Assembly (NCBI GenBank): GCA_965284665.1
Contig: OZ260108.1
Location: 1,450,588 to 1,514,587 of the forward strand
Origin: Sphingomonadaceae bacterium
GTDB lineage: Bacteria > Pseudomonadota > Alphaproteobacteria > Sphingomonadales > Sphingomonadaceae
Direction of reading: 5' to 3'
Length of the DNA stretch: 64,000 bases
Within the stretch, counting starts at the first letter, position 1, and each line of letters opens with the position of its first letter. The position numbers and the translations under genes are program-made. The notes below the pieces were generated by a model, which did not search any database, had not been told where the DNA came from, and saw nothing but the letters and a program-made list of their open reading frames with translations. This document shows, in pieces, positions 24,940 through 35,668 of this stretch.

Positions 24940-25232
24940 CCGCCTGGATGATCGTTACTGCAAGGATCCATGACCGCGAGAAGTTCATCACCGGCTATGG
25001 GCCAGCGGCGGCCAAGTTGATCGGCCAGTTCGGGGGCAAGTACATCGTCCGCGCGCCCGGCGCCGAAGTGCTGGAGGGCGAGGGTTGGCCGGGCGCCTCG
25101 GTTGTCATCTCCGAGTGGCCCGACAAGGCCGCGATCATGGCCTTCTGGAACTCGCCCGAATATGCCGAGGTGAAGAAGCTGCGCGAGGGGCTGGCCGATG
25201 TCTCGATCCAGGTGATCGAGCAGCCGGGCTAG
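24936..25232 (+). CDS. DUF1330 family protein
   Basis: FGGKYIVR, EVLEG, VISEWP, FWNSPEYAEVKKLR. Confidence 0.88.
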   Translation: MTAWMIVTARIHDREKFITGYGPAAAKLIGQFGGKYIVRAPGAEVLEGEGWPGASVVISEWPDKAAIMAFWNSPEYAEVKKLREGLADVSIQVIEQPG

Positions 25233-26323
25233 AGCAGCAGCACCGCAAAGCCGAGGGCAGTGAGGAAACTGGCGAGGGTGGCGGTCACCACCGGGATCGT
25301 CGCGCGCCAGCCCATTTCGAGCAGCAGGTCCATCCGGCTGCGCATCGCCGTGGCGGTGACCGCCAGCAGCAGCAGGCCCTTGGAGGTGATCAGGGCATAG
25401 TGGCTGACTACCTGCGGGACAGACACCACACTGTTGAGTACGACCGTCGCCAGGAAGGCGGTGATGAACCAGGGCAGGGCAAGGCGTTTCCACACTGGCT
25501 GGGCAACGCCGCCGGCGGTGCCGCCGCGCAGCATCAGGCTGACCAGCACGACAATTGGGGCGAGCAGGGCGACGCGGGCCAGCTTGACGATCGTGGCATA
25601 GGAACCCGCCGCATCGGAAAAGGCATAGCCGCCGCCGATCGCCTGGGCGACATCGTGGATCGAGGCGCCGATCAGAAAGCCGGCTTGCTGGTCAGTCAGG
25701 TTCAGTTCCGCCGCCAGCACCGGATAGACCGACATGGCAAAGGCGCTGGCGAGACTCACCCCGACCAGGGTCAGCGCGAACTGCGCCTGGCTGAGCCGCT
25801 CCTTGCCGATCACGCCGTAGAGCGCGAGTGCGGCGCTGGCCCCGCAGATTGCGGTCGATCCGCCGGCCAGCATCCCGGCGTACCTGGACTGTGTGGCAAA
25901 GCGCGCCCCGGCGATCCCGGCAAAGAAGGTCGCCGCCATGACCACTAGCAGCGCCAGGAACGGCGCGGCGCCCAGCGCGGTGATCTGTTCGATCGTCACC
26001 TGCAGCCCCAGCACCACGATCCCGACCCGCAGGCACGTGCGCGAAGCAAAGTCGAGCCCCGGGTGCGAGCGCGGCTCACGCGCGATGAAGTTGAGCGAGA
26101 GACCGATCAGCAGGCCCAGCAGGATAATCGGAAAGCCATAGTGCTCCGACAGCCAGGCCGCCGCTGCCGCCGCGACGCCGCAGATGGCGAGACCCGGGAA
26201 CAGGCTGGCCTTCTTGCTGTCGGCCTGGGCGGTCAGTTCCGCCAGGTGCAGCTCGCCGTAGAGGTCGCCGCCGTGGGGCAGGGCATCCCAGTCGATCGCG
26301 GGGCGGGGTGGCGGCTGGTTCAT
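25229..26323 (-). CDS. YeiH/UPF0324 putative sulfate/sulfite exporter (PSE family)
   Basis: LRVGIVVLG, GSTAICGASAALA, IGASIHDVAQA, VKLARV; start ATG 26323. Confidence 0.9.
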   Translation of the reverse strand: MNQPPPRPAIDWDALPHGGDLYGELHLAELTAQADSKKASLFPGLAICGVAAAAAAWLSEHYGFPIILLGLLIGLSLNFIAREPRSHPGLDFASRTCLRVGIVVLGLQVTIEQITALGAAPFLALLVVMAATFFAGIAGARFATQSRYAGMLAGGSTAICGASAALALYGVIGKERLSQAQFALTLVGVSLASAFAMSVYPVLAAELNLTDQQAGFLIGASIHDVAQAIGGGYAFSDAAGSYATIVKLARVALLAPIVVLVSLMLRGGTAGGVAQPVWKRLALPWFITAFLATVVLNSVVSVPQVVSHYALITSKGLLLLAVTATAMRSRMDLLLEMGWRATIPVVTATLASFLTALGFAVLLL

Positions 26324-26331
26324 GGGCGGGC

Positions 26332-27567
26332 TTAGCGGGCCTGTTCGGGACGACGGATGACCGGCATTAGCAAATGCAGCCAGCCCAGCGCCACCAGATA
26401 GGACACGGCGGCAAACAGGAACAGCGGGGTAAAGCCCAGCCCGGCGGTCAGCACCGCGCCGGTCACCAGCTGGATCAGCGCCCCGCCCATGTTGCCCATA
26501 AAGGCCCCGAAGGCGGTGACCCGGCCAACCTTGCTGCGCGGCACCACATCGGTGATCGTCGAGAAGATCGACAGCGAGAAGCCCTGGTGCCCGGCCATGA
26601 CCAGCCCCATCATTACCGCAACCGGCCAGAAGGAATTGAGCTGCAGCACCAGCGGCAGCGGCAGAACCACCAGCGCCGAACACAGCATCACGGTCTTGCG
26701 CACGCGGTTCGGGTTCCAACCCTGTTCGAGCAGGCGCGTGGAAATCCAGCCCGCAAACAGCGCCCCGCCGCCCGATCCCAGGAAGGCGATCGCCAGCGGC
26801 ACGGCCAGCTCTTCGGTCGTCAGGCCATAGGTCTTGCGGTAGAAATCGGGCAGCCAGAAGTTGATCAGCCACCAGGTTGCGTCCGACAGCGCCTTGGCGA
26901 TCACGATCGCCCAGGTGCGGCGGTCACGCAGGATCGGGCCATAGGGCGCGCCATCGTCGGAATAGTCGCGCTGCTCGTCCTCGGCGCTATCGTCAAAGGT
27001 GACGCGGCGGGCGAACCACAGCCACAGCGCAAGGGTGACAAAGCCGGCAATCCCGCCGGTGATCAGCGCCCCGCGCCAGCCGAACTGCGCGGCCAGGAGC
27101 GGAATGAAGAACGGCAGTGACAGCGTGCCCAGCCCGGCAATGGCCGTGCCGACGCCGAAGGCAAAGCTGCGTTTGTCAGGCGGGAACAGCGTCGCCACGG
27201 TCTTGATCGTCAGTGGCGTCTGGACCGCTTCGGTTGCGCCGAGGCCAATCCGCGCGGCCACCACGTGCCAGGCCGATACGGCCCAGCCATGGGCCATGGC
27301 CGCCAGGCTCCAGGTGGAGACCCCCGTCACCATCGAGCGCCAGACGCCCAGCTTGTCGACCAGCCAACCGGTGAACAGGAAAGAGAAGGCGGCCGCCATC
27401 TGCGTGACGAACGCCAGCCGCCCGAAATCGGCATCGGTCCAGCCGAAATCGGCGGACATGTCGGGCTTGAGGATGGCGATGATCGGCCGGTCCATCGCGT
27501 TGAACACGCCGGCAATGGCCAGCAGGATGAACAGCGTCCAGCTGAGCCGGCTATTGATCTTTTGCAC
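26332..27567 (-). CDS. MFS transporter, ExuT/anion:cation symporter-like
   Basis: NAMDRPII, GWLVDKLG, LSDATWWLINFWLPD, GGALFAGWIS; GTG start 27567 with RBS GGGGAGAG. Confidence 0.9.
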   Translation of the reverse strand: MQKINSRLSWTLFILLAIAGVFNAMDRPIIAILKPDMSADFGWTDADFGRLAFVTQMAAAFSFLFTGWLVDKLGVWRSMVTGVSTWSLAAMAHGWAVSAWHVVAARIGLGATEAVQTPLTIKTVATLFPPDKRSFAFGVGTAIAGLGTLSLPFFIPLLAAQFGWRGALITGGIAGFVTLALWLWFARRVTFDDSAEDEQRDYSDDGAPYGPILRDRRTWAIVIAKALSDATWWLINFWLPDFYRKTYGLTTEELAVPLAIAFLGSGGGALFAGWISTRLLEQGWNPNRVRKTVMLCSALVVLPLPLVLQLNSFWPVAVMMGLVMAGHQGFSLSIFSTITDVVPRSKVGRVTAFGAFMGNMGGALIQLVTGAVLTAGLGFTPLFLFAAVSYLVALGWLHLLMPVIRRPEQAR

Positions 27568-27597
27568 CCGGTCTCTCCCCACCCAAGCGAAAACAAA

Positions 27598-27630
27598 AGG
27601 GGCCTCCGCCACGCGGCGAAGGCCCCTCGA
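27598..27630 (-). terminator. Rho-independent terminator-like hairpin between the TonB receptor and the MFS gene
   Basis: AGGGGCCT...AGGCCCCT stem followed by TTTTGTTTT on the minus strand. Confidence 0.6.
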
Positions 27631-27653
27631 TTGTCAGGTCTATCCCATCCGGA

Positions 27654-30041
27654 TCAGAAGCTGAACCGGCCGGTCACACCCCAGTAGCGATCCGCATCGC
27701 GCGGGATCTGGTAGCGGTAGGAACCGCTGACGCCGCCGTTGATGATCGCCGCAGCATAGCCTTGGTCGAACAGGTTGCGAACCACGAAGGCCAGCTTCCA
27801 CTTGTCGTCCGGATCCACCAGCGCGATATTGGCGTTGACCAGCGCATAGGCCGGGATCGTGCCCAGGCGGCGCTGCACGGCGTCAGCCGCGAACAGCGAG
27901 AGCTGGCTCGACTGGAAGTTCATCGAAGCGCCCAGTGCGACATTGGCGAAGCCGCCGGTTTCGATGGTGTGATCCAGCGCCATCGAGCCCTTCCAGACCG
28001 GGGCATAGCCCAGCTTGGTACCGGCCGGGATCGAAGCCGCGCCCAGCGGAGCCTTGAAGTCCACGACGTGCGCGTCGTTGATCGACAGACCAGCGGTGAG
28101 GTTGGTGTTGCGGCCCAGGCGCCAGGCCAGGTCCATTTCGATGCCCTTGGTCGAGATCGTGCCCGCGTTGGTAAAGCGGGTCACCACCACGCCAGCCACC
28201 AGATCCGGGTTGTTGGCCTGGAAGTTCTTGTAGCGGGCATAATAGCCAGCGATGTTAAAGGTCAGCGCGCCGTCGAGCAGCGTGTTCTTCAGACCGATTT
28301 CGATCGAGTTCGAGGTTTCCGGCTCGATCACGTTGGTGCCGGTGCCGGTCAGGTTGAAGAAGACGTTATAAGCGGGCCCCTTGTAACCACGAGCATAGCT
28401 GACATAGGCCATGGTGTCTTCGTTCAGGTCGAACTGGAACGCGGCCTTGCCCGACAGGTTGTCGTTGCTGGTTTCAGACGTCCACGGAACCCCGTTCGAC
28501 AGTGCGGCAGCGGCAGTGGCGGCTGCGCCCGGCGCAGTGCCGAGGCCGACCAGACGGACGTATTCGTTATAGACGCCCTGGTCGAAGTTCGGCTGGATCC
28601 CCGGACCGGTCAGCGGCGAGCGGCGGCTGTGGAAGACCGACAGGTTGTCGTGCGTATAGCGCAGGCCAGCGATGAAGCGGGCTGTATCGGACAGCTTGTA
28701 GGTCGCCTGACCGAACAAGGCGATGTTCTTGAAGGTCGAACCGAAGGTGGCCGAACCCGACGGGGTGGTCGAAGGATTGGCGTTGGCGCTGCCGCAAGGA
28801 ATCAATACCCCGGTCGGTGCCGTAGCCGTGGCGGTGCACTGAATGACGTTGCGGGTGAAGGTCCGCTCGGATTCAGCACGCGAGTAAAACGCGCCAAGCA
28901 CATAGGACAGCGTCTGATCGGCGGGCGAGGTCAGGCGCAGTTCCTGCGTGAAGGTGTTCGAGGTCTGCGGGCCGCTGTCGTGCAGCTGGGCAAAGCCGAC
29001 ATAGGCGCGATCGAGCCAGTCACCGTCACGGATTTCCGTGTTGTCCCAGCCACGATAGGCGGTGATGCTGGTCACGGTGTGTTCGCCCAGTGCGAAGTCG
29101 CCCTGGAATGACACACCCCAGCCTTCTTCCTTGGTCGCAGTGACCAGGTTCTGCGCGACCGCGCGGGTGTTCTTGCCTGCGGGGGTAGGCAGAACGTTGA
29201 AGCCCAGGCTGGTGGTGTTGGCACCGGTCGCCGTCAGCGGGCCGCTGCCGATGATGTCAGCGCAGCAATCGTCGTCGTTCTTGTAGTAATCGGCGGCGAG
29301 GTAGAGGCGCAGATCGTCGCTCGGCTCGTACAGGAACTGGCCGCGAACGCCCCAGTGCTTGTAGCCGTTGACCCACTCGTTGGTGGTGGTGTTGCGGATG
29401 TTGCCATCATACTCGCCATAGAAGGCGGTCAGGCGGGCAGCGAGGTCCTGGCCCAGCGGCAGGTTGACCGCGCCCTTCAGGCGGAACTCGTTGCGATCAA
29501 AGTAGCTGGCTTCGAGATTGCCGCCGAATTCCATCTTCGGCATCTGGGTGGTGATGTTGATCACGCCGGCCGAGGCGTTCTTGCCGAACAGCGTGCCCTG
29601 GGGGCCGCGCAGCACTTCCATCTGGGCCACGTCGACCATGTCAGAGAAGGCTTCGCCCGAACGCGAATAGACCACGCCGTCAACCACGGTCGAGACCGAA
29701 GGCTCACCCGCAATCGAGAAGGTGGCGGTACCGACACCGCGCAGGAAGATCGTCTGGTTCAGCGTCGTGCCCGACTTCAGGAAGTTGAGCGAAGGCACCA
29801 TCTGGCTGGCGCTTTCGATCGAGGGGCGCGAGGCTTCAGCCAGGCGCTCGCCGCTGAGAACCGAGACCGCGACCGGCACGTCCTGCACGTTTTCCGAACG
29901 CTTCTGGGCGGTGACGACGATTTCGCCGGGGGCGTTCTCGTCTTCATTGGCCGTGTCCTGGGCATAGGCCGGACCAGCGAAAGCAACCAGGGCCAGCGCT
30001 GCCAGGGGCAGGGCCGACGAGGTGCGAAGCATCGACTTCAT
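27654..30041 (-). CDS. TonB-dependent receptor (candidate sulfoquinovose/sulfoquinovoside uptake)
   Basis: Signal peptide, EIVVTAQKR TonB-box region, EVLRGPQGTLFGKNASAG, terminal FSF. Confidence 0.95.
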   Translation of the reverse strand: MKSMLRTSSALPLAALALVAFAGPAYAQDTANEDENAPGEIVVTAQKRSENVQDVPVAVSVLSGERLAEASRPSIESASQMVPSLNFLKSGTTLNQTIFLRGVGTATFSIAGEPSVSTVVDGVVYSRSGEAFSDMVDVAQMEVLRGPQGTLFGKNASAGVINITTQMPKMEFGGNLEASYFDRNEFRLKGAVNLPLGQDLAARLTAFYGEYDGNIRNTTTNEWVNGYKHWGVRGQFLYEPSDDLRLYLAADYYKNDDDCCADIIGSGPLTATGANTTSLGFNVLPTPAGKNTRAVAQNLVTATKEEGWGVSFQGDFALGEHTVTSITAYRGWDNTEIRDGDWLDRAYVGFAQLHDSGPQTSNTFTQELRLTSPADQTLSYVLGAFYSRAESERTFTRNVIQCTATATAPTGVLIPCGSANANPSTTPSGSATFGSTFKNIALFGQATYKLSDTARFIAGLRYTHDNLSVFHSRRSPLTGPGIQPNFDQGVYNEYVRLVGLGTAPGAAATAAAALSNGVPWTSETSNDNLSGKAAFQFDLNEDTMAYVSYARGYKGPAYNVFFNLTGTGTNVIEPETSNSIEIGLKNTLLDGALTFNIAGYYARYKNFQANNPDLVAGVVVTRFTNAGTISTKGIEMDLAWRLGRNTNLTAGLSINDAHVVDFKAPLGAASIPAGTKLGYAPVWKGSMALDHTIETGGFANVALGASMNFQSSQLSLFAADAVQRRLGTIPAYALVNANIALVDPDDKWKLAFVVRNLFDQGYAAAIINGGVSGSYRYQIPRDADRYWGVTGRFSF

Positions 30042-30150
30042 GGATGTTCCTCCCTTGCACCGGGGGCATCCTGCCCCGCGGCGTAATTCTCCTCTGCCGG
30101 AGGGATTCCCCCTTCCGGTTGGTGCTTGAATTGCGGTGAGACGGTCGATA

Positions 30151-30210
30151 TGTCAAGCGGTGTCATACGGGACAGACGTGGATCGCAGGCCGCTTGTGAC
30201 ATTGTCGCAA
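30151..30210. promoter_or_regulatory. Divergent promoter with LacI-type operator candidates
   Basis: Minus-strand TGACACCGC-TTGACA (30151-30165); imperfect palindrome TTGTGACA-T-TGTCGCAA (30194-30210). Confidence 0.4.
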
Positions 30211-30234
30211 CAGCACGGACGAGAGGCTGGGGGA

Positions 30235-32232
30235 ATGGAGTTGGAAGCCGGGTTTTCGGCGGTTGACGGCGGTTTTGACCTGCACTTTGCAGGGCGGCTG
30301 GTGCTGCGCCACCGAGCCGAAACGCCGGTTCTCGACTCCGCCTGCGGCAATCCGACGGTCCTGATGTACCGGGGCAACTTCAAGATCGACGATGCGCCGG
30401 AAGGGCAGATCGCGCCGCGCGATTGTGCGGTTGAGGATGGCAGCGTCATGCTGTCGCATGATGGCACTCCCGTCGCCCGGCTGGAGCTGTCGGACAACCG
30501 CCTGACCGTCACCCTGCTGACCCCGGGGCATGACCGTATCCGCCTGCGCTGGCATGGCGAGTCGGGCGAGGCCGTGTGGGGCGGGGGTGAGCAGATGAGT
30601 TACCTTTCGCTCTGTGGCCGATCCTTCCCGATGTGGACCAGCGAGCCCGGCGTTGGCCGCGACAAGTCGACCGAGCTGACCCGGAAAATGGACCTCGATG
30701 GCATGGCCGGGGGCGATTACTATCACACCAATTACCCGCAGCCGACGATCCTGACCTCACGCTGGCTGGCGCTGCATCTCGATGCCGCCTGCTACAGCGT
30801 GATCGACTGCACCGATGCGGCCCATCACGCTTTTGAAGTGTGGAGCAGCACGGCCAGCTTCGAACTCTATGCCGCTGATGGCCCGCTTGATCTGGTCGGC
30901 CAGCTCTCCACCCGCTTTGGCCGCCAGCCGCCATTGCCCAACTGGGCGATCGGCGGGGCGATCGTTGGCCTGAAGGACGGGACCCGCAGCTTCGAGCGGC
31001 TCGAAGGCTTTATCAAGGCCGGCACCGCCGTCTCAGGCCTGTGGTGCGAGGACTGGGCCGGGATCCGCGAGACCAGCTTCGGCCGCCGCCTGTTCTGGGA
31101 CTGGCGGCGCGACAACCAGCGCTATGCCGACCTGCCGCAGCGGATTGCCGCGCTTCAGGCGCGCGGCATCCGCTTCCTGGCCTATGCCAACCCCTATCTG
31201 TGCAACGACGGCATCCTCTATGAAGAGGCGTTGGAAGGCGGGCATTTCTGCCTGAAGCCCGATAGCGACGAAGTCTATCTGGTCGACTTCGGTGAGTTCG
31301 ACTGCGGGGTGCTCGATTTCACCCGCAAGGCAACCCGTGACTGGTTCGCCGAAAAGGTGCTGGGCCGGGAAATGCTCGATATCGGTATCTCGGGCTGGAT
31401 GGCCGATTTCGGGGAATACCTGCCGACCGACGTGCGGCTGGCCGATGGCTCCGACCCGATGGAAGCGCACAACCGCTGGCCGGTGCTATGGGCCGAGGTC
31501 AATGCCCAGGCGGTCGCGAGCCGCGACAAGACCGGCGATGCCGTGTTTTTCATGCGCGCCGGTTTTTCGGGCGTGCAGGGCCATTGCCCACTGCTCTGGG
31601 CCGGGGACCAGTCGGTCGATTTCACCCGGCATGACGGGATCGGCACGGTCATCACCGCCGCCCTGTCAGCCGGGCTGGTCGGCAATGCCTACAGCCATTC
31701 GGACTGCGGCGGCTACACTTCGATCCTCGGCAATGTCCGCACGGTCGAGCTGATGGAGCGGTGGTGCGAGCTCTCCGCCTTCGCCCCGGTCATGCGCAGC
31801 CACGAGGGCAACCGGCCGGATGACAACCTGCAGTATGACTCGACGCCCGAACTGCTGGCCTGCTTTGCGCGCTGGAGCCGGGTCCACGCGCACCTGGCGC
31901 CCTATGTCCGCCACCTTTGCGACGAGGCGGCCGAACTTGGCCTGCCCGCGCAGCGCCCAATGTTCCTGCACAATGCCGACGATGCCAGCCTCTACGCGGT
32001 GCAGGACCAGTATCTCTACGGCGCCGACCTGGTTGTCGCCCCGGTGATCGAAGACGGCGCGCGCGAGCGCGAGGTGATCCTGCCGGGGGCAGGCGAGTGG
32101 GTCCACGCCTTCACTGGTGAGGCCTTTGCGGCCGGCACCCATATGGTCGCCGCGCCGATCGGCAGCCCGCCGGTTTTCTATTCTGCGCAAAGCAGTTACG
32201 CTGAACTCTTTGCAGGATTGCGTAGCTTATGA
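30235..32232 (+). CDS. yihQ: GH31 sulfoquinovosidase
   Basis: GWMADFGEY nucleophile; sulfonate-binding KERWY pattern (GLKDG, WCEDW, GRRLFW, DCGGY); MRSHEGNRP. Confidence 0.9.
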   Translation: MELEAGFSAVDGGFDLHFAGRLVLRHRAETPVLDSACGNPTVLMYRGNFKIDDAPEGQIAPRDCAVEDGSVMLSHDGTPVARLELSDNRLTVTLLTPGHDRIRLRWHGESGEAVWGGGEQMSYLSLCGRSFPMWTSEPGVGRDKSTELTRKMDLDGMAGGDYYHTNYPQPTILTSRWLALHLDAACYSVIDCTDAAHHAFEVWSSTASFELYAADGPLDLVGQLSTRFGRQPPLPNWAIGGAIVGLKDGTRSFERLEGFIKAGTAVSGLWCEDWAGIRETSFGRRLFWDWRRDNQRYADLPQRIAALQARGIRFLAYANPYLCNDGILYEEALEGGHFCLKPDSDEVYLVDFGEFDCGVLDFTRKATRDWFAEKVLGREMLDIGISGWMADFGEYLPTDVRLADGSDPMEAHNRWPVLWAEVNAQAVASRDKTGDAVFFMRAGFSGVQGHCPLLWAGDQSVDFTRHDGIGTVITAALSAGLVGNAYSHSDCGGYTSILGNVRTVELMERWCELSAFAPVMRSHEGNRPDDNLQYDSTPELLACFARWSRVHAHLAPYVRHLCDEAAELGLPAQRPMFLHNADDASLYAVQDQYLYGADLVVAPVIEDGAREREVILPGAGEWVHAFTGEAFAAGTHMVAAPIGSPPVFYSAQSSYAELFAGLRSL

Positions 32233-33242
32233 GCGAGCGTTCCAATATCCGCGATGTCGCCGCGCGGGCCGGGGTTGCGGTGAAGACCGTCAGCCGCGTG
32301 CTCAACGGCCATCCCTATGTCTCGGCCGATACCAAGGCGCGGGTCGAAGAGGCGATGAAGGCGCTCGACTTCCGTCCTTCCGTTGCGGCGCGGATCCTCT
32401 CGGGCGCGAAGAGCAACCAGGTCGCGCTGATCTATGACAATCACAGCCCCTATTACATGTTCCAGATCCAGACCGGCTGCTGGGACGTCTGCCGCGCCAA
32501 GGGCATTCGTCTGCTGGCCCAGCCGGTCGATGTCGCGGATCCCGATGTTGGCGATCAGGTGCGCGGCCTCGTTACCGAAACCCAGGTCGACGGGATCATC
32601 CTGTCATCGCCGGTGACCGATTGCGAGCCGGTGCTGCGCGCGCTGGAGGCGATGGACATTCCCTTTGTGCGCATCTCGCCCGGCACCAATCACGCGCTGA
32701 CCAGTTCGGTCTTCATGGACGACGCCCAGGCGGCCGATGACATGACGACCCACCTGATCAACGCCGGCCACCGCCGGATCGGGTTCATCAAGGGCCACCC
32801 CAACCACAAGGGATCGGAAGACCGTCTGGCCGGCTATCGCCGCGCGCTTGACCGGGCCGGGATCGCCTTCGATTCCGCGCTGGTCTGCGATGGCGAGTTC
32901 GATTTCGATTCCGGCGTGCGCGGCGCGGGCCACCTGCTCGACCTGCCTGAGCCGCCGACCGCGATCTTCGCCTCGAACGACGATATGGCCGCCGGGGTCC
33001 TCGCCGTCGCGCACGATCGCAACATCGATCTGCCGGGTGAACTGTCGGTCGCCGGGTTCGACGATACCACGCTGGCCCGCACCGTCTGGCCGCCGCTAAC
33101 CACGATCCACCAGCCGATGGCCGAACTGGCCCAGACGGCCGCCGAAATCCTCATCGAAGGGGGCGACATCACCCATCGCCGCCTGCCGCACCAACTCATC
33201 GAGCGCGCATCGGTCGCGCCGCCATACAGGAAGATATCATGA
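32229..33242 (+). CDS. LacI family transcriptional regulator
   Basis: IRDVAARAGVAVKTVSRVLN, IFASNDDMAAG, SVAGFDD, PLTTIHQP. Confidence 0.95.
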   Translation: MSERSNIRDVAARAGVAVKTVSRVLNGHPYVSADTKARVEEAMKALDFRPSVAARILSGAKSNQVALIYDNHSPYYMFQIQTGCWDVCRAKGIRLLAQPVDVADPDVGDQVRGLVTETQVDGIILSSPVTDCEPVLRALEAMDIPFVRISPGTNHALTSSVFMDDAQAADDMTTHLINAGHRRIGFIKGHPNHKGSEDRLAGYRRALDRAGIAFDSALVCDGEFDFDSGVRGAGHLLDLPEPPTAIFASNDDMAAGVLAVAHDRNIDLPGELSVAGFDDTTLARTVWPPLTTIHQPMAELAQTAAEILIEGGDITHRRLPHQLIERASVAPPYRKIS

Positions 33243-34153
33243 GCGAATTGCCTCTCCCGCCCGCCGCCCGCCAGCTTGGCACCAGCGGGATCGAAGTCTC
33301 CCCGATCGCCTGGGGCATGTGGCGCCTGGCCGAGAATGGGCGTAGCGCTGCCGATGCCGCCAAGCTGGTCCATGCCGCGCTCGATGCCGGGATCACCTTT
33401 CTCGACACGGCTGACATCTATGGCTTCAACGGCAGCGGCGGGTTCGGCGATGCCGAGGCGCTGCTGGGCGAAGTTCTGGCCGCCGAACCGGGCCTGCGCG
33501 GCCGCATGGTGCTGGCCACCAAGGGCGGGATCATGCCGCCGCTGCCCTATGACCAGAGCGCGGACTACCTGCGCGCGGCGATCGATGCTTCGCTGGCCCG
33601 GCTTAAGACCGACAGCGTCGAGCTGTGGCAGGTCCATCGGCCGGATATCCTCGCTCACCCGCAGGAAGTCGCCCGCGTGCTGGATGATGCCGTGGCGGCC
33701 GGCAAGATCCGCACCCTCGGCGTCTCCAACTTCACCCAGGCCCAGACTGCCGCGCTCAACCACTTCCTCGGCCACAAGCTGGTTTCGACCCAGCCCGAGA
33801 TCAGCCCGCTGCGGATCGACTGTTTCGAGAATGGCGAGCTGGATCAGGCGATGATGCTGGGCCTGACCCCGCTGGCCTGGTCGCCGCTCGGCGGCGGACG
33901 CCTCGCCAAGCCGGAAAGCGCGCGCGATCACGCGATCTGCGCCGCGCTCGACAAGGTGGCGGGCGAGGCCGGCGTCTCGCGCTCGGTCGCGGCCTATTCG
34001 TGGCTGATGGCGCACCCGGCCGGGATTATCCCGATCATCGGCTCGCAGCAGGCAGAGCGGATTGCCGAAGGCGCCGCCGCGCTGACGGTACACTGGACCC
34101 GGACCGACTGGTACGCCGTACTGGTCGCCGCGCGCGGCGTGCCGCTGCCTTGA
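33239..34153 (+). CDS. smoB: Aldo-keto reductase, probable 6-oxo(dehydro)-glucose reductase
   Basis: DTADIYG, LATKGG, QVHRPD, GVSNF, WSPLGGG; sits between the SQase and the SQ monooxygenase. Confidence 0.78.
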   Translation: MSELPLPPAARQLGTSGIEVSPIAWGMWRLAENGRSAADAAKLVHAALDAGITFLDTADIYGFNGSGGFGDAEALLGEVLAAEPGLRGRMVLATKGGIMPPLPYDQSADYLRAAIDASLARLKTDSVELWQVHRPDILAHPQEVARVLDDAVAAGKIRTLGVSNFTQAQTAALNHFLGHKLVSTQPEISPLRIDCFENGELDQAMMLGLTPLAWSPLGGGRLAKPESARDHAICAALDKVAGEAGVSRSVAAYSWLMAHPAGIIPIIGSQQAERIAEGAAALTVHWTRTDWYAVLVAARGVPLP

Positions 34154-34225
34154 GCTGAATCAAGGCGGGCCGGGGCGCAATCGTCCAGAGGCCCGCCTCA
34201 AGACTGACCTGACGGAGAGACTGCC

Positions 34226-35317
34226 ATGACCGCCCACAACCCGCCCGAAATCGCCTGGTTCTCGGCCCTGTGCGATGACGATTACGAGTTCCTCGGCGTC
34301 CCCGATCAGTACCTCAAATCGAGCTGGGAGCATTGCCGCAACATCGTGCTGCGCGCCGAAGAGGGCGGGTTTGACAATATCCTGCTGCCCTCGGGCTATG
34401 AGCTGGGGGTCGATGCCACAGCCTTCGCCGCCGCCGTCGCCACCCAGGTCAAGCGGATCAAGCTGCTCTGGGCGACCCGCATGGGTGAGGACTGGCCGCC
34501 GCAGCTGGCCCGCCGCATCGCCACGATCGATCGCATCCTGGGCCCCAACGCCGCCGGTACGGGCGGGCGCCTTAACGTCAACATCATCTCCTCGCCCATG
34601 CCGGGCGAGACGATGGACAGCGCCCCGCGCTACCGCCGCGGGACCGAGGTGATGAAGATCATCCGCACGCTGCTCAATGGCGAGCACCTCGATTTCCAGG
34701 GCGAGTTCTACCAGCTCAAGCTCGATCCGGCGCGGATCAGCACGATCTCGGGCAAGTGCCCCAATCTCTACTTCGGCGGCCTCAGCCACGAAGCGCGCGA
34801 ATGCGCCGCCGAAGCGGCCGACGTCTACCTGATGTGGCCCGACAAGATGGAGAACGTCCGCGAGGTCGTCACCGACATGAAGGCCCGCGCCGCCGCAAAG
34901 GGCCGCACCCTCAAGTTCGGCTACCGCGCCCACGTGATCGTGCGCGAGACCGAGGACGAGGCCCGCCAATATGCCGACCGGCTGCTGTCCAAGCTGGATG
35001 ATGAAATGGGCCGCGCGATCCGCGAAAAGAGCCTCGATGCCAACAACTACGGCGTCCAGCGCCAGCAGGAACTGCGCAGCGCCGCCGATGGCGACGGCTT
35101 TGTCGAGGAGAACCTGTGGACCGGCATCGGCCGCGCCCGCTCCGGCTGCGGCGCGGCGATCGTCGGCAACCCGGACCAGGTAATCGCCAAGCTGCGCGCC
35201 TACCAGGACGCAGGGATGGAAGCCTTCATCCTCTCCGGCTACCCGCACATGCAGGAATGCGACATGTTCGCGCGCTATGTGCTGCCGCAGATCCAACACG
35301 CGCCGATCGCGGGGTAG
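34226..35317 (+). CDS. smoC: LLM-class flavin-dependent sulfoquinovose monooxygenase (SsuD-like)
   Basis: WFSALCDDDY.FLGVPD, SSWEHC, NIISS, YFGGLS, AFILSGYPH; recalled resemblance to Agrobacterium SmoC plus context. Confidence 0.82.
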   Translation: MTAHNPPEIAWFSALCDDDYEFLGVPDQYLKSSWEHCRNIVLRAEEGGFDNILLPSGYELGVDATAFAAAVATQVKRIKLLWATRMGEDWPPQLARRIATIDRILGPNAAGTGGRLNVNIISSPMPGETMDSAPRYRRGTEVMKIIRTLLNGEHLDFQGEFYQLKLDPARISTISGKCPNLYFGGLSHEARECAAEAADVYLMWPDKMENVREVVTDMKARAAAKGRTLKFGYRAHVIVRETEDEARQYADRLLSKLDDEMGRAIREKSLDANNYGVQRQQELRSAADGDGFVEENLWTGIGRARSGCGAAIVGNPDQVIAKLRAYQDAGMEAFILSGYPHMQECDMFARYVLPQIQHAPIAG

Positions 35318-35348: not shown

Positions 35349-35668
35349 TGTCACCCCGGACCTGTTCCGGGGCGATGCTGCCTTTCTGCGATCTGGAAGA
35401 AGCAAAGCCTTGGCCCGGAACAGGTCCGGGCTGACAGCATGAGGTGGCTTGTCACCCCGGACTCCGTCAGCCCTGAAACTATCACCGCCACCCAGAACCC
35501 AATACCGTCACCCCGGACTTGATCCGGGGTCCCAACAGCGAGCAGGCCCGGCAGCAGCAGGCCGAGCGCCGCTTCGCAGTCCTCGCGCCGGTCTGGTCAG
35601 CGCCGAGTGGGTGGCAGACTGGACCCTGGAACGATAGTCACCACGGGTGAAACAAGTTCAGGGTGACG
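35349..35668. repeat. Cluster of CGTC/TGTC-type REP palindromes, including truncated and interrupted copies
   Basis: TGTCACCCCGGACCTGTTCCGGGG / GCCCGGAACAGGTCCGGGCTGACA (35349-35436); partial copy 35450-35463; CGTCACCCCGGACTTGATCCGGGGTCC (35506-35532) paired with GGACCCT[21-nt insert]GAAACAAGTTCAGGGTGACG (35621-35668). Confidence 0.85.

Follow-up and report, generated by a model that had tools for sequence, protein, structure and literature searches.

A gene cluster for the use of sulfoquinovose (SQ), a sulfur-containing sugar of plants and algae, was found at positions 25229 to 35317 of the window, a 64,000-nucleotide stretch of the complete 3.1-Mb chromosome of a Sphingomonadaceae bacterium of the Novosphingobium type (contig OZ260108.1, positions 1,450,588 to 1,514,587). 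The locus is very likely a standard sphingomonad locus of the SQ monooxygenase (sulfo-SMO, or sulfo-ASMO) type that uses SQ and SQ-glycerol as carbon source, with the full mechanism including transport and LacI control, and its assignment to the sulfo-SMO pathway as such is close to certain. Seven intact genes form two divergent units. The rightward unit (plus strand) encodes a glycoside hydrolase family 31 (GH31) sulfoquinovosidase (SQase) of the YihQ/SmoI type (30235..32232, 665 aa), a LacI-family repressor (32229..33242, 337 aa; PF00356 and PF13377), an aldo-keto reductase assigned as the 6-oxoglucose (6-dehydroglucose) reductase SquF/SmoB (33239..34153, 304 aa), and a luciferase-like SQ monooxygenase, SquD/SmoC, that depends on reduced flavin mononucleotide (FMNH2; 34226..35317, 363 aa). 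The leftward unit (minus strand) encodes a TonB-dependent receptor (27654..30041, 795 aa; PF07715 and PF00593), a major facilitator superfamily (MFS) transporter of the anion:cation symporter (ACS; DgoT/ExuT) type, clade A (26332..27567, 411 aa; PF07690), and a PSE/YeiH-family (SuyZ/TauZ-like) membrane protein (25229..26323, 364 aa; PF03601). These three are candidates, respectively, for an outer-membrane importer of SQ and SQ-glycosides, a proton-coupled importer of SQ and SQ-glycerol, and an exporter of sulfite (or sulfate). An earlier note on this DNA had described a KERWY-type SQase with SmoB-like, SmoC-like and LacI genes, opposed by a TonB receptor, an ExuT-like MFS gene and a PSE-family gene, and all of these genes were recovered intact in that arrangement.

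The enzyme assignments of that note were borne out by active-site residues as well as by orthology. The GH31 protein scored 851 bits against NF007746 (cut-off 553), and its best match was the Agrobacterium tumefaciens SQase 5OHY (E 2e-245). Its KERWY residues K247, E272, R285, W288, and Y494 correspond to K245, E270, R283, W286, and Y491 of that enzyme, so the sulfonate triad R283-W286-Y491, K245, and E270 are all represented, and together with both catalytic aspartates (D391 and D458) they are invariant in 71 of 71 aligned GH31 rows. The best PDB matches of the monooxygenase were the SmoC structures 7OH2 and 7OLF (E 5e-109), with SsuD reaching only 5e-55. SmoC residues W206, R236, H238, Y341, and H343 and the FMN-phosphate residues Y136 and S189 are found here as W204, R234, H236, Y339, H341, Y136, and S187, the first five being invariant in 80 rows. 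The reductase best matched 7BBZ, whose residue numbering is consistent with published SmoB. The SmoB tetrad (D71/Y76/K104/H151) and the counterparts of R152 and W232, namely R134 and W214, are present, as are S269 and R274 for the NADPH phosphate; the catalytic Y61, K95, and H133 as well as R134 and W214 are conserved. In addition, the reductase and monooxygenase genes are adjacent, where a distance of up to 10 genes between SmoC/SquD and SmoB/SquF is used to define sulfo-SMO membership (PMC13372026).

Comparison with Novosphingobium aromaticivorans DSM 12444 showed identities of 73% for the SQase, 88% for LacI (Q2G5J2), 83% for the reductase (Q2G5J3, named 6-dehydroglucose reductase), and 85% for the monooxygenase (Q2G5J4, named sulfoquinovose monooxygenase), and of 42% for the receptor (Q2G5J0), 41% for the MFS protein, and 69% for the PSE protein (Q2G5I8). 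Both SquD and SquF of N. aromaticivorans have been produced recombinantly and characterised (Liu et al. 2021, reviewed in PMC9594981). The sulfo-ASMO (squ) cluster of that organism shares with the present one the seven gene types, the order SQase-lacI-squF-squD, the divergent receptor, and an operator-like site. However, its MFS gene belongs to clade B and is divergent from the PSE gene, with a second site, whereas the clade A gene here lies in line with the receptor and PSE genes under one site; furthermore, glpD-glpK homologs follow squD there, whereas glpD and glpK lie elsewhere in the present genome. Because the DSM 12444 cluster itself carries the TonB/MFS/PSE module, this module is not a new variant, and neither the pathway nor its enzymes nor the gene set is novel. 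In the literature covered, which stopped short of the primary N. aromaticivorans paper, we found no test of transport by the receptor, MFS, or PSE proteins and no description of the operator; searches on KERWY, on SQ with TauZ, and on SQ with LacI and operator returned nothing relevant.

More distant systems share the chemistry or single components. The A. tumefaciens C58 smo cluster (Atu3277-3285; PMC8795539) has an SQase, an SQ monooxygenase, and a 6-oxoglucose reductase with the same chemistry and residues, but relies on ATP-binding cassette (ABC) uptake with the binding protein SmoF and on a dedicated flavin reductase, SmoA. In contrast, the present cluster has a TonB receptor and MFS protein, LacI, a PSE protein, and no reductase for flavin. 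The regulator of the C58 cluster is of the GntR type. The sulfo-SDO (SQ dioxygenase) cluster of Alteromonas macleodii is similar by description, with an SQ-induced TonB receptor (MASE_18030) and a predicted sulfate transporter; this receptor was 107-fold more abundant on SQ and was proposed to act in uptake (PMC12780224). It differs in having a dioxygenase in place of the monooxygenase, another SQase, and sulfite dehydrogenase genes. The PSE protein has its PF03601 match in common with Paracoccus SuyZ/TauZ, the substrates of PSE proteins being putative.

The gene set is not a chance association, since the same set recurs across 80 loci from Sphingomonadales, some of them incomplete. The reductase was found in all 80, LacI in 77, the receptor in 75, the SQase in 72, the MFS protein in 69, and the PSE protein in 50. 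Among 201 sampled genomes of the genus, 95 carried the monooxygenase; the receptor accompanied it in 91 of these, and 102 genomes had neither. A close PSE gene and the monooxygenase occurred together in 77 genomes. Moreover, glpD adjoins the cluster in 45 of the 80 loci, pointing to SQ-glycerol as cargo. The closest named locus is that of Novosphingobium sp. APW14, and the G+C content of the cluster equals that of its surroundings. Two loci labelled Synechococcus and Cypionkella (L008 and L047) contain sphingomonad-type clusters and are probably mis-binned metagenome contigs.

A conserved 15-bp site, TGTCAAGCGGTGTCA, lies in the divergent promoter region between the receptor and SQase genes (30151..30165, strand unassigned). 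The strict 15-bp pattern was present in 68 of 70 receptor/SQase intergenic regions, and this copy is the single match in the genome. The relaxed pattern TGTC-N3-CG(G/T)TGTCA gave 121 matches in 1.48 Mb of loci vs. none in 4.4 Mb of shuffles, and all 121 fell into three places, namely the receptor/SQase promoter, the stretch preceding smoB, and the PSE/MFS position. In about 40 loci a second copy stands directly before the PSE gene; the site travels with the PSE and MFS genes to the other side of smoC in L052 and L055 and is retained before relocated PSE genes away from the cluster (L094, L096, L098, and L110). All 79 genomes that encode an orthologous LacI of at least 73% identity contained it, compared with 44 of the 122 others, the latter figure indicating a real genome-wide background. 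These patterns suggest that the site is likely a LacI operator overlapping two divergent promoters.

In five loci (L023, L035, L037, L057, and L061), the GH31 SQase is replaced by a Gfo/Idh/MocA protein that is GH188-like by context and 46% identical to its counterpart in a Rhizobium smo cluster. The receptor and MFS protein are retained in all five and the PSE protein in four, and these loci carry a more distant LacI together with a 14-bp variant of the operator-like site.

The PSE protein matched PF03601 along almost the full length of the model (positions 1-300 of 304; E 2e-48, 165 bits) and scored below the TIGR00698 cut-off. A PSE gene also lies within a Rhizobium smo cluster that has tripartite ATP-independent periplasmic (TRAP) uptake and GntR, and PSE proteins have been argued to extrude sulfite (PMC11582611). 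On balance, the protein appears to export SQ-derived sulfite. A less probable but serious alternative is that it is a general exporter of sulfur waste, whose cargo would be sulfate formed by oxidation or other sulfur anions. Its recruitment to the cluster would then be loose, and growth on SQ would not require it. Sulfate export was indeed the first function proposed for the family, and TauZ is described in this way, but the sulfur product that Agrobacterium releases when using SQ is sulfite and not sulfate (PMC8795539). Loose recruitment would fit the close PSE orthologs (71-81%) that are often encoded at other places, next to genes for a 100-aa protein and an Lrp-type regulator, including in monooxygenase-negative genomes; the operator-like site that the PSE gene has directly upstream in so many loci, and keeps upon relocation, argues against it. 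Dispensability would fit the six TauE-family genes of this genome, which could deal with sulfite and serve as a back-up, although the PSE gene is the only one of its family in the genome. No TauE gene was found in place of the PSE gene behind the second site, the four neighbours scanned being unrelated. In ten loci (L096-L099, L103-L107, and L109), close PSE orthologs stand next to a protein of about 100 aa and an Lrp/AsnC regulator, possibly as a separate sulfur-detoxification unit.

The site itself could also be conserved solely as overlapping promoter elements, without being a LacI operator, but we regard this as improbable. It includes TTGACA on the minus strand, and the conservation of its flanks is compatible with two overlapping promoters; nevertheless, the second copies before the PSE gene lose TTGACA, keep the remainder, and sit just past a separate promoter-like pair. 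LacI operators were taken as palindromes with a central CG, 30-140 bp before a start codon. The site has a CG core and lies 70 and 110 bp from the two start codons, and, being 15 bp long and asymmetric, it is of the rarer odd type, odd-length motifs making up 4% of LacI sites (PMC4052901). Loci with a more distant LacI (such as L075 and L077) carry 14-bp forms that keep the half-site TGACA(A/C)CG, which again favours an operator. A copy also stands before smoB where the adjacent regulator is of the LysR type (L049 and L081), but two genomes with this LysR-type arrangement (G048 and G025) encode a 52% LacI homolog elsewhere. Conservation was the sole basis for reading the promoters, a scan for sigma-70 sites having given no match there. 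The part of the LacI survey supplement that was covered yielded no regulon for this LacI.

A GC-rich hairpin of 14 pairs with a T-tail was predicted by folding in the receptor/MFS gap (27597..27628, minus strand), and a comparable hairpin occupies this position in the clade A loci that were folded. It is a probable step-down terminator or mRNA-stabilising stem, and its conservation suggests stepped expression with the receptor highest. Since the longest-open-reading-frame start of the MFS gene (27612) falls within this hairpin, GTG 27567, with an upstream ribosome-binding site, is the most likely start; the PSE gene starts at ATG 26323, 8 nt past the MFS stop.

Pfam plug and barrel domains identified the receptor as a TonB-dependent transporter, and its structural model (pLDDT 92.8) has the plug-and-barrel form, with TM values up to 0.75 to FyuA and other receptors. 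No solved structure was close in sequence, the best being 20% identical. Candidate binding residues are K89, E336, R338, H354, and D355, which are conserved in 97-100% of the receptors from SQ loci but rare in distant homologs. We are fairly confident that the receptor imports SQ compounds. At millimolar SQ, porins may be sufficient for its entry. Since receptors of the TonB class are typically devoted to cargo that is rare or large, the receptor could instead mainly import larger acylated sulfolipid fragments such as lyso-sulfoquinovosyl diacylglycerol (lyso-SQDG), deacylated before or after the inner membrane, and not free SQ or SQ-glycerol. This seems doubtful. In L049 and L081, a long-chain acyl-CoA ligase gene does separate the SQase gene from that of a receptor with 42% identity, but neither this cluster nor that of N. 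aromaticivorans contains a lipase, esterase, or acyl-CoA ligase, and the recurring extra genes are glpD, FMN reductase, and ribB. Of seven distant receptor homologs (36-43%), one belonged to an SQ locus, one had a GH188-like gene as neighbour, one had sulfatase genes, and the other four had contexts unrelated to SQ; therefore, the SQ context does not extend to the whole receptor family at about 40% identity and below. In L114 (3961-16380), a 38% homolog is accompanied by LacI, two sulfatases, two MFS genes, and a gene of the formylglycine-generating enzyme (FGE) family, and is likely to represent sulfated-sugar uptake by a sister family.

In L081 (2804-13071; Novosphingobium sp. EMRT-2 plasmid) and L049, the SQase, long-chain acyl-CoA ligase, and TonB receptor form one unit, and LysR and a PhyH-family dioxygenase precede smoB-smoC, with the operator-like site before smoB. 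This variant may handle acylated SQ. The dioxygenase differs from SqoD, which is of the TauD type.

No signal peptide was evident in the GH31 SQase; therefore, an inner-membrane importer is needed, and the MFS protein is the sole candidate in the cluster. Its best profile was TIGR00893, with a score of 121 against a cut-off of 395, so it is not a DgoT ortholog; its best PDB match was DgoT (E 2e-21). D41, R42, R121, and E128 (numbered from start 27612) are equivalent to D46, R47, R126, and E133 of Escherichia coli DgoT; 66-67 of the 67 rows retain them, and both the Asp-Arg pair of the first transmembrane helix and the Arg/Glu proton-coupling set of the fourth are present. In DgoT, D46, R47, and E133 drive proton-coupled anion symport, and their retention makes import likely. 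A quick tree separated two MFS clades, about 40% identical, which alternate among loci; the exchange extends to a genome with a 98% identical monooxygenase. The characterised ACS members DgoT and ExuT carry carboxylate sugar acids, and a sulfonate cargo is a candidate here; import of SQ or SQ-glycerol by this protein is probable. A role in by-product export or in sugar-acid import, as its carboxylate-carrying relatives and the swapping of clades between near relatives might suggest, is very unlikely, because the SMO route yields no organic sulfonate for export, the cluster offers no other importer, and the residues for proton coupling and anion binding persist in both clades, which also share the operator-like site.

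The transporter roles gain support from co-occurrence, the common operator-like site, and the DgoT-type residues, and the following course can be proposed. The TonB-dependent receptor would carry SQ-glycerol or SQ across the outer membrane, and the ACS-type MFS protein would move them into the cytoplasm by proton symport. There the SQase, as its homology and motif indicate, would free SQ and glycerol, the glycerol passing to GlpK and GlpD encoded elsewhere. The monooxygenase would use FMNH2, presumably from an unlinked flavin reductase, and O2 to yield 6-oxoglucose and sulfite, a reaction demonstrated with the enzymes of N. aromaticivorans and Agrobacterium, and the aldo-keto reductase would form glucose, as shown for homologs. 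The PSE protein would export the sulfite, and LacI, acting at 30151-30165, would keep both divergent operons repressed until it binds SQ or one of its derivatives.

Several observations weigh against this reading. The substrates of the receptor, MFS, and PSE proteins are all inferred. The sampled relatives are not independent, and the co-occurrence counts are therefore descriptions rather than statistics. A close PSE gene is missing from 18 of the 95 monooxygenase-positive genomes and present in 10 monooxygenase-negative ones, and the relaxed site occurs in 34 of 106 monooxygenase-negative genomes. In this genome no second operator was found at the PSE/MFS position; with the hairpin after the receptor gene, MFS-PSE expression therefore needs read-through or an unseen promoter. 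The sulfonate residues of SmoC also occur in MsuD and SsuD, so that they are necessary but not specific and do not prove SQ specificity. The loop with Lys120, a glucose contact of Agrobacterium SmoB, is missing here in the 7BBZ alignment, yet the reductase remains close to SquF. Finally, the cluster contains no flavin reductase, and a homolog of the SsuE-like partner that accompanies 22 related loci was not found.

With regard to flavin supply, the N. aromaticivorans cluster likewise has no flavin reductase, SmoA/SsuE being optional for the pathway. Candidates elsewhere in the genome are two PF01613 genes and one weak PF03358 gene. A search for a flavin reductase through the operator-like site returned only the one exact site of the genome, the next-best score lying amid unrelated genes. 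An FMN reductase gene adjoins the cluster in 22 of the 80 loci, which fits flavin demand, as does ribB; the latter stands just downstream of smoC in 20 loci (e.g. L064, 11228-11824), usually with the FMN reductase gene. These neighbours suggest a flavin supply tied to the monooxygenase.

Around the present cluster, the flanking DUF1330 and chemotaxis genes were judged to lie outside the system. Downstream of smoC, a short repeat resembling repetitive extragenic palindromic (REP) elements and beginning GTCACCCCGGAC occurs in three copies (window positions 35350, 35451, and 35507) and 23 times genome-wide. In L082 (1-11044; Rhizobium sp. WSM4643 plasmid), the locus has no SmoB but does encode a monooxygenase with 67% identity to the SmoC described here, and the neighbours of this enzyme (a short-chain dehydrogenase/reductase, lactonase, aldolase, dehydratase, and ABC set) resemble a sulfo-ED (Entner-Doudoroff) cluster.

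The pathway is not new, and the cluster itself would be no surprise to a specialist. Nonetheless, a 2026 review describes SQ uptake by aquatic, especially freshwater, bacteria as largely unknown (PMC13436972), and Novosphingobium was dominant in SQ-carbon uptake in a mangrove isotope-probing incubation (PMC13372026). As roughly every second genome sampled from the genus has this locus type, its receptor and MFS protein are obvious candidates for SQ uptake. We lean toward the view that the receptor and the ACS-type MFS protein, the latter reading a sulfonate in place of a carboxylate, may constitute the main SQ and SQ-glycerol route of freshwater sphingomonads, with a PSE sulfite exporter co-regulated by one LacI through TGTC-N3-CG(G/T)TGTCA. 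The locus also offers a predicted operator and a clean test case for the export substrate of the PSE family, and, if this view is true, the receptor would represent a TonB transporter family for a sulfosugar.

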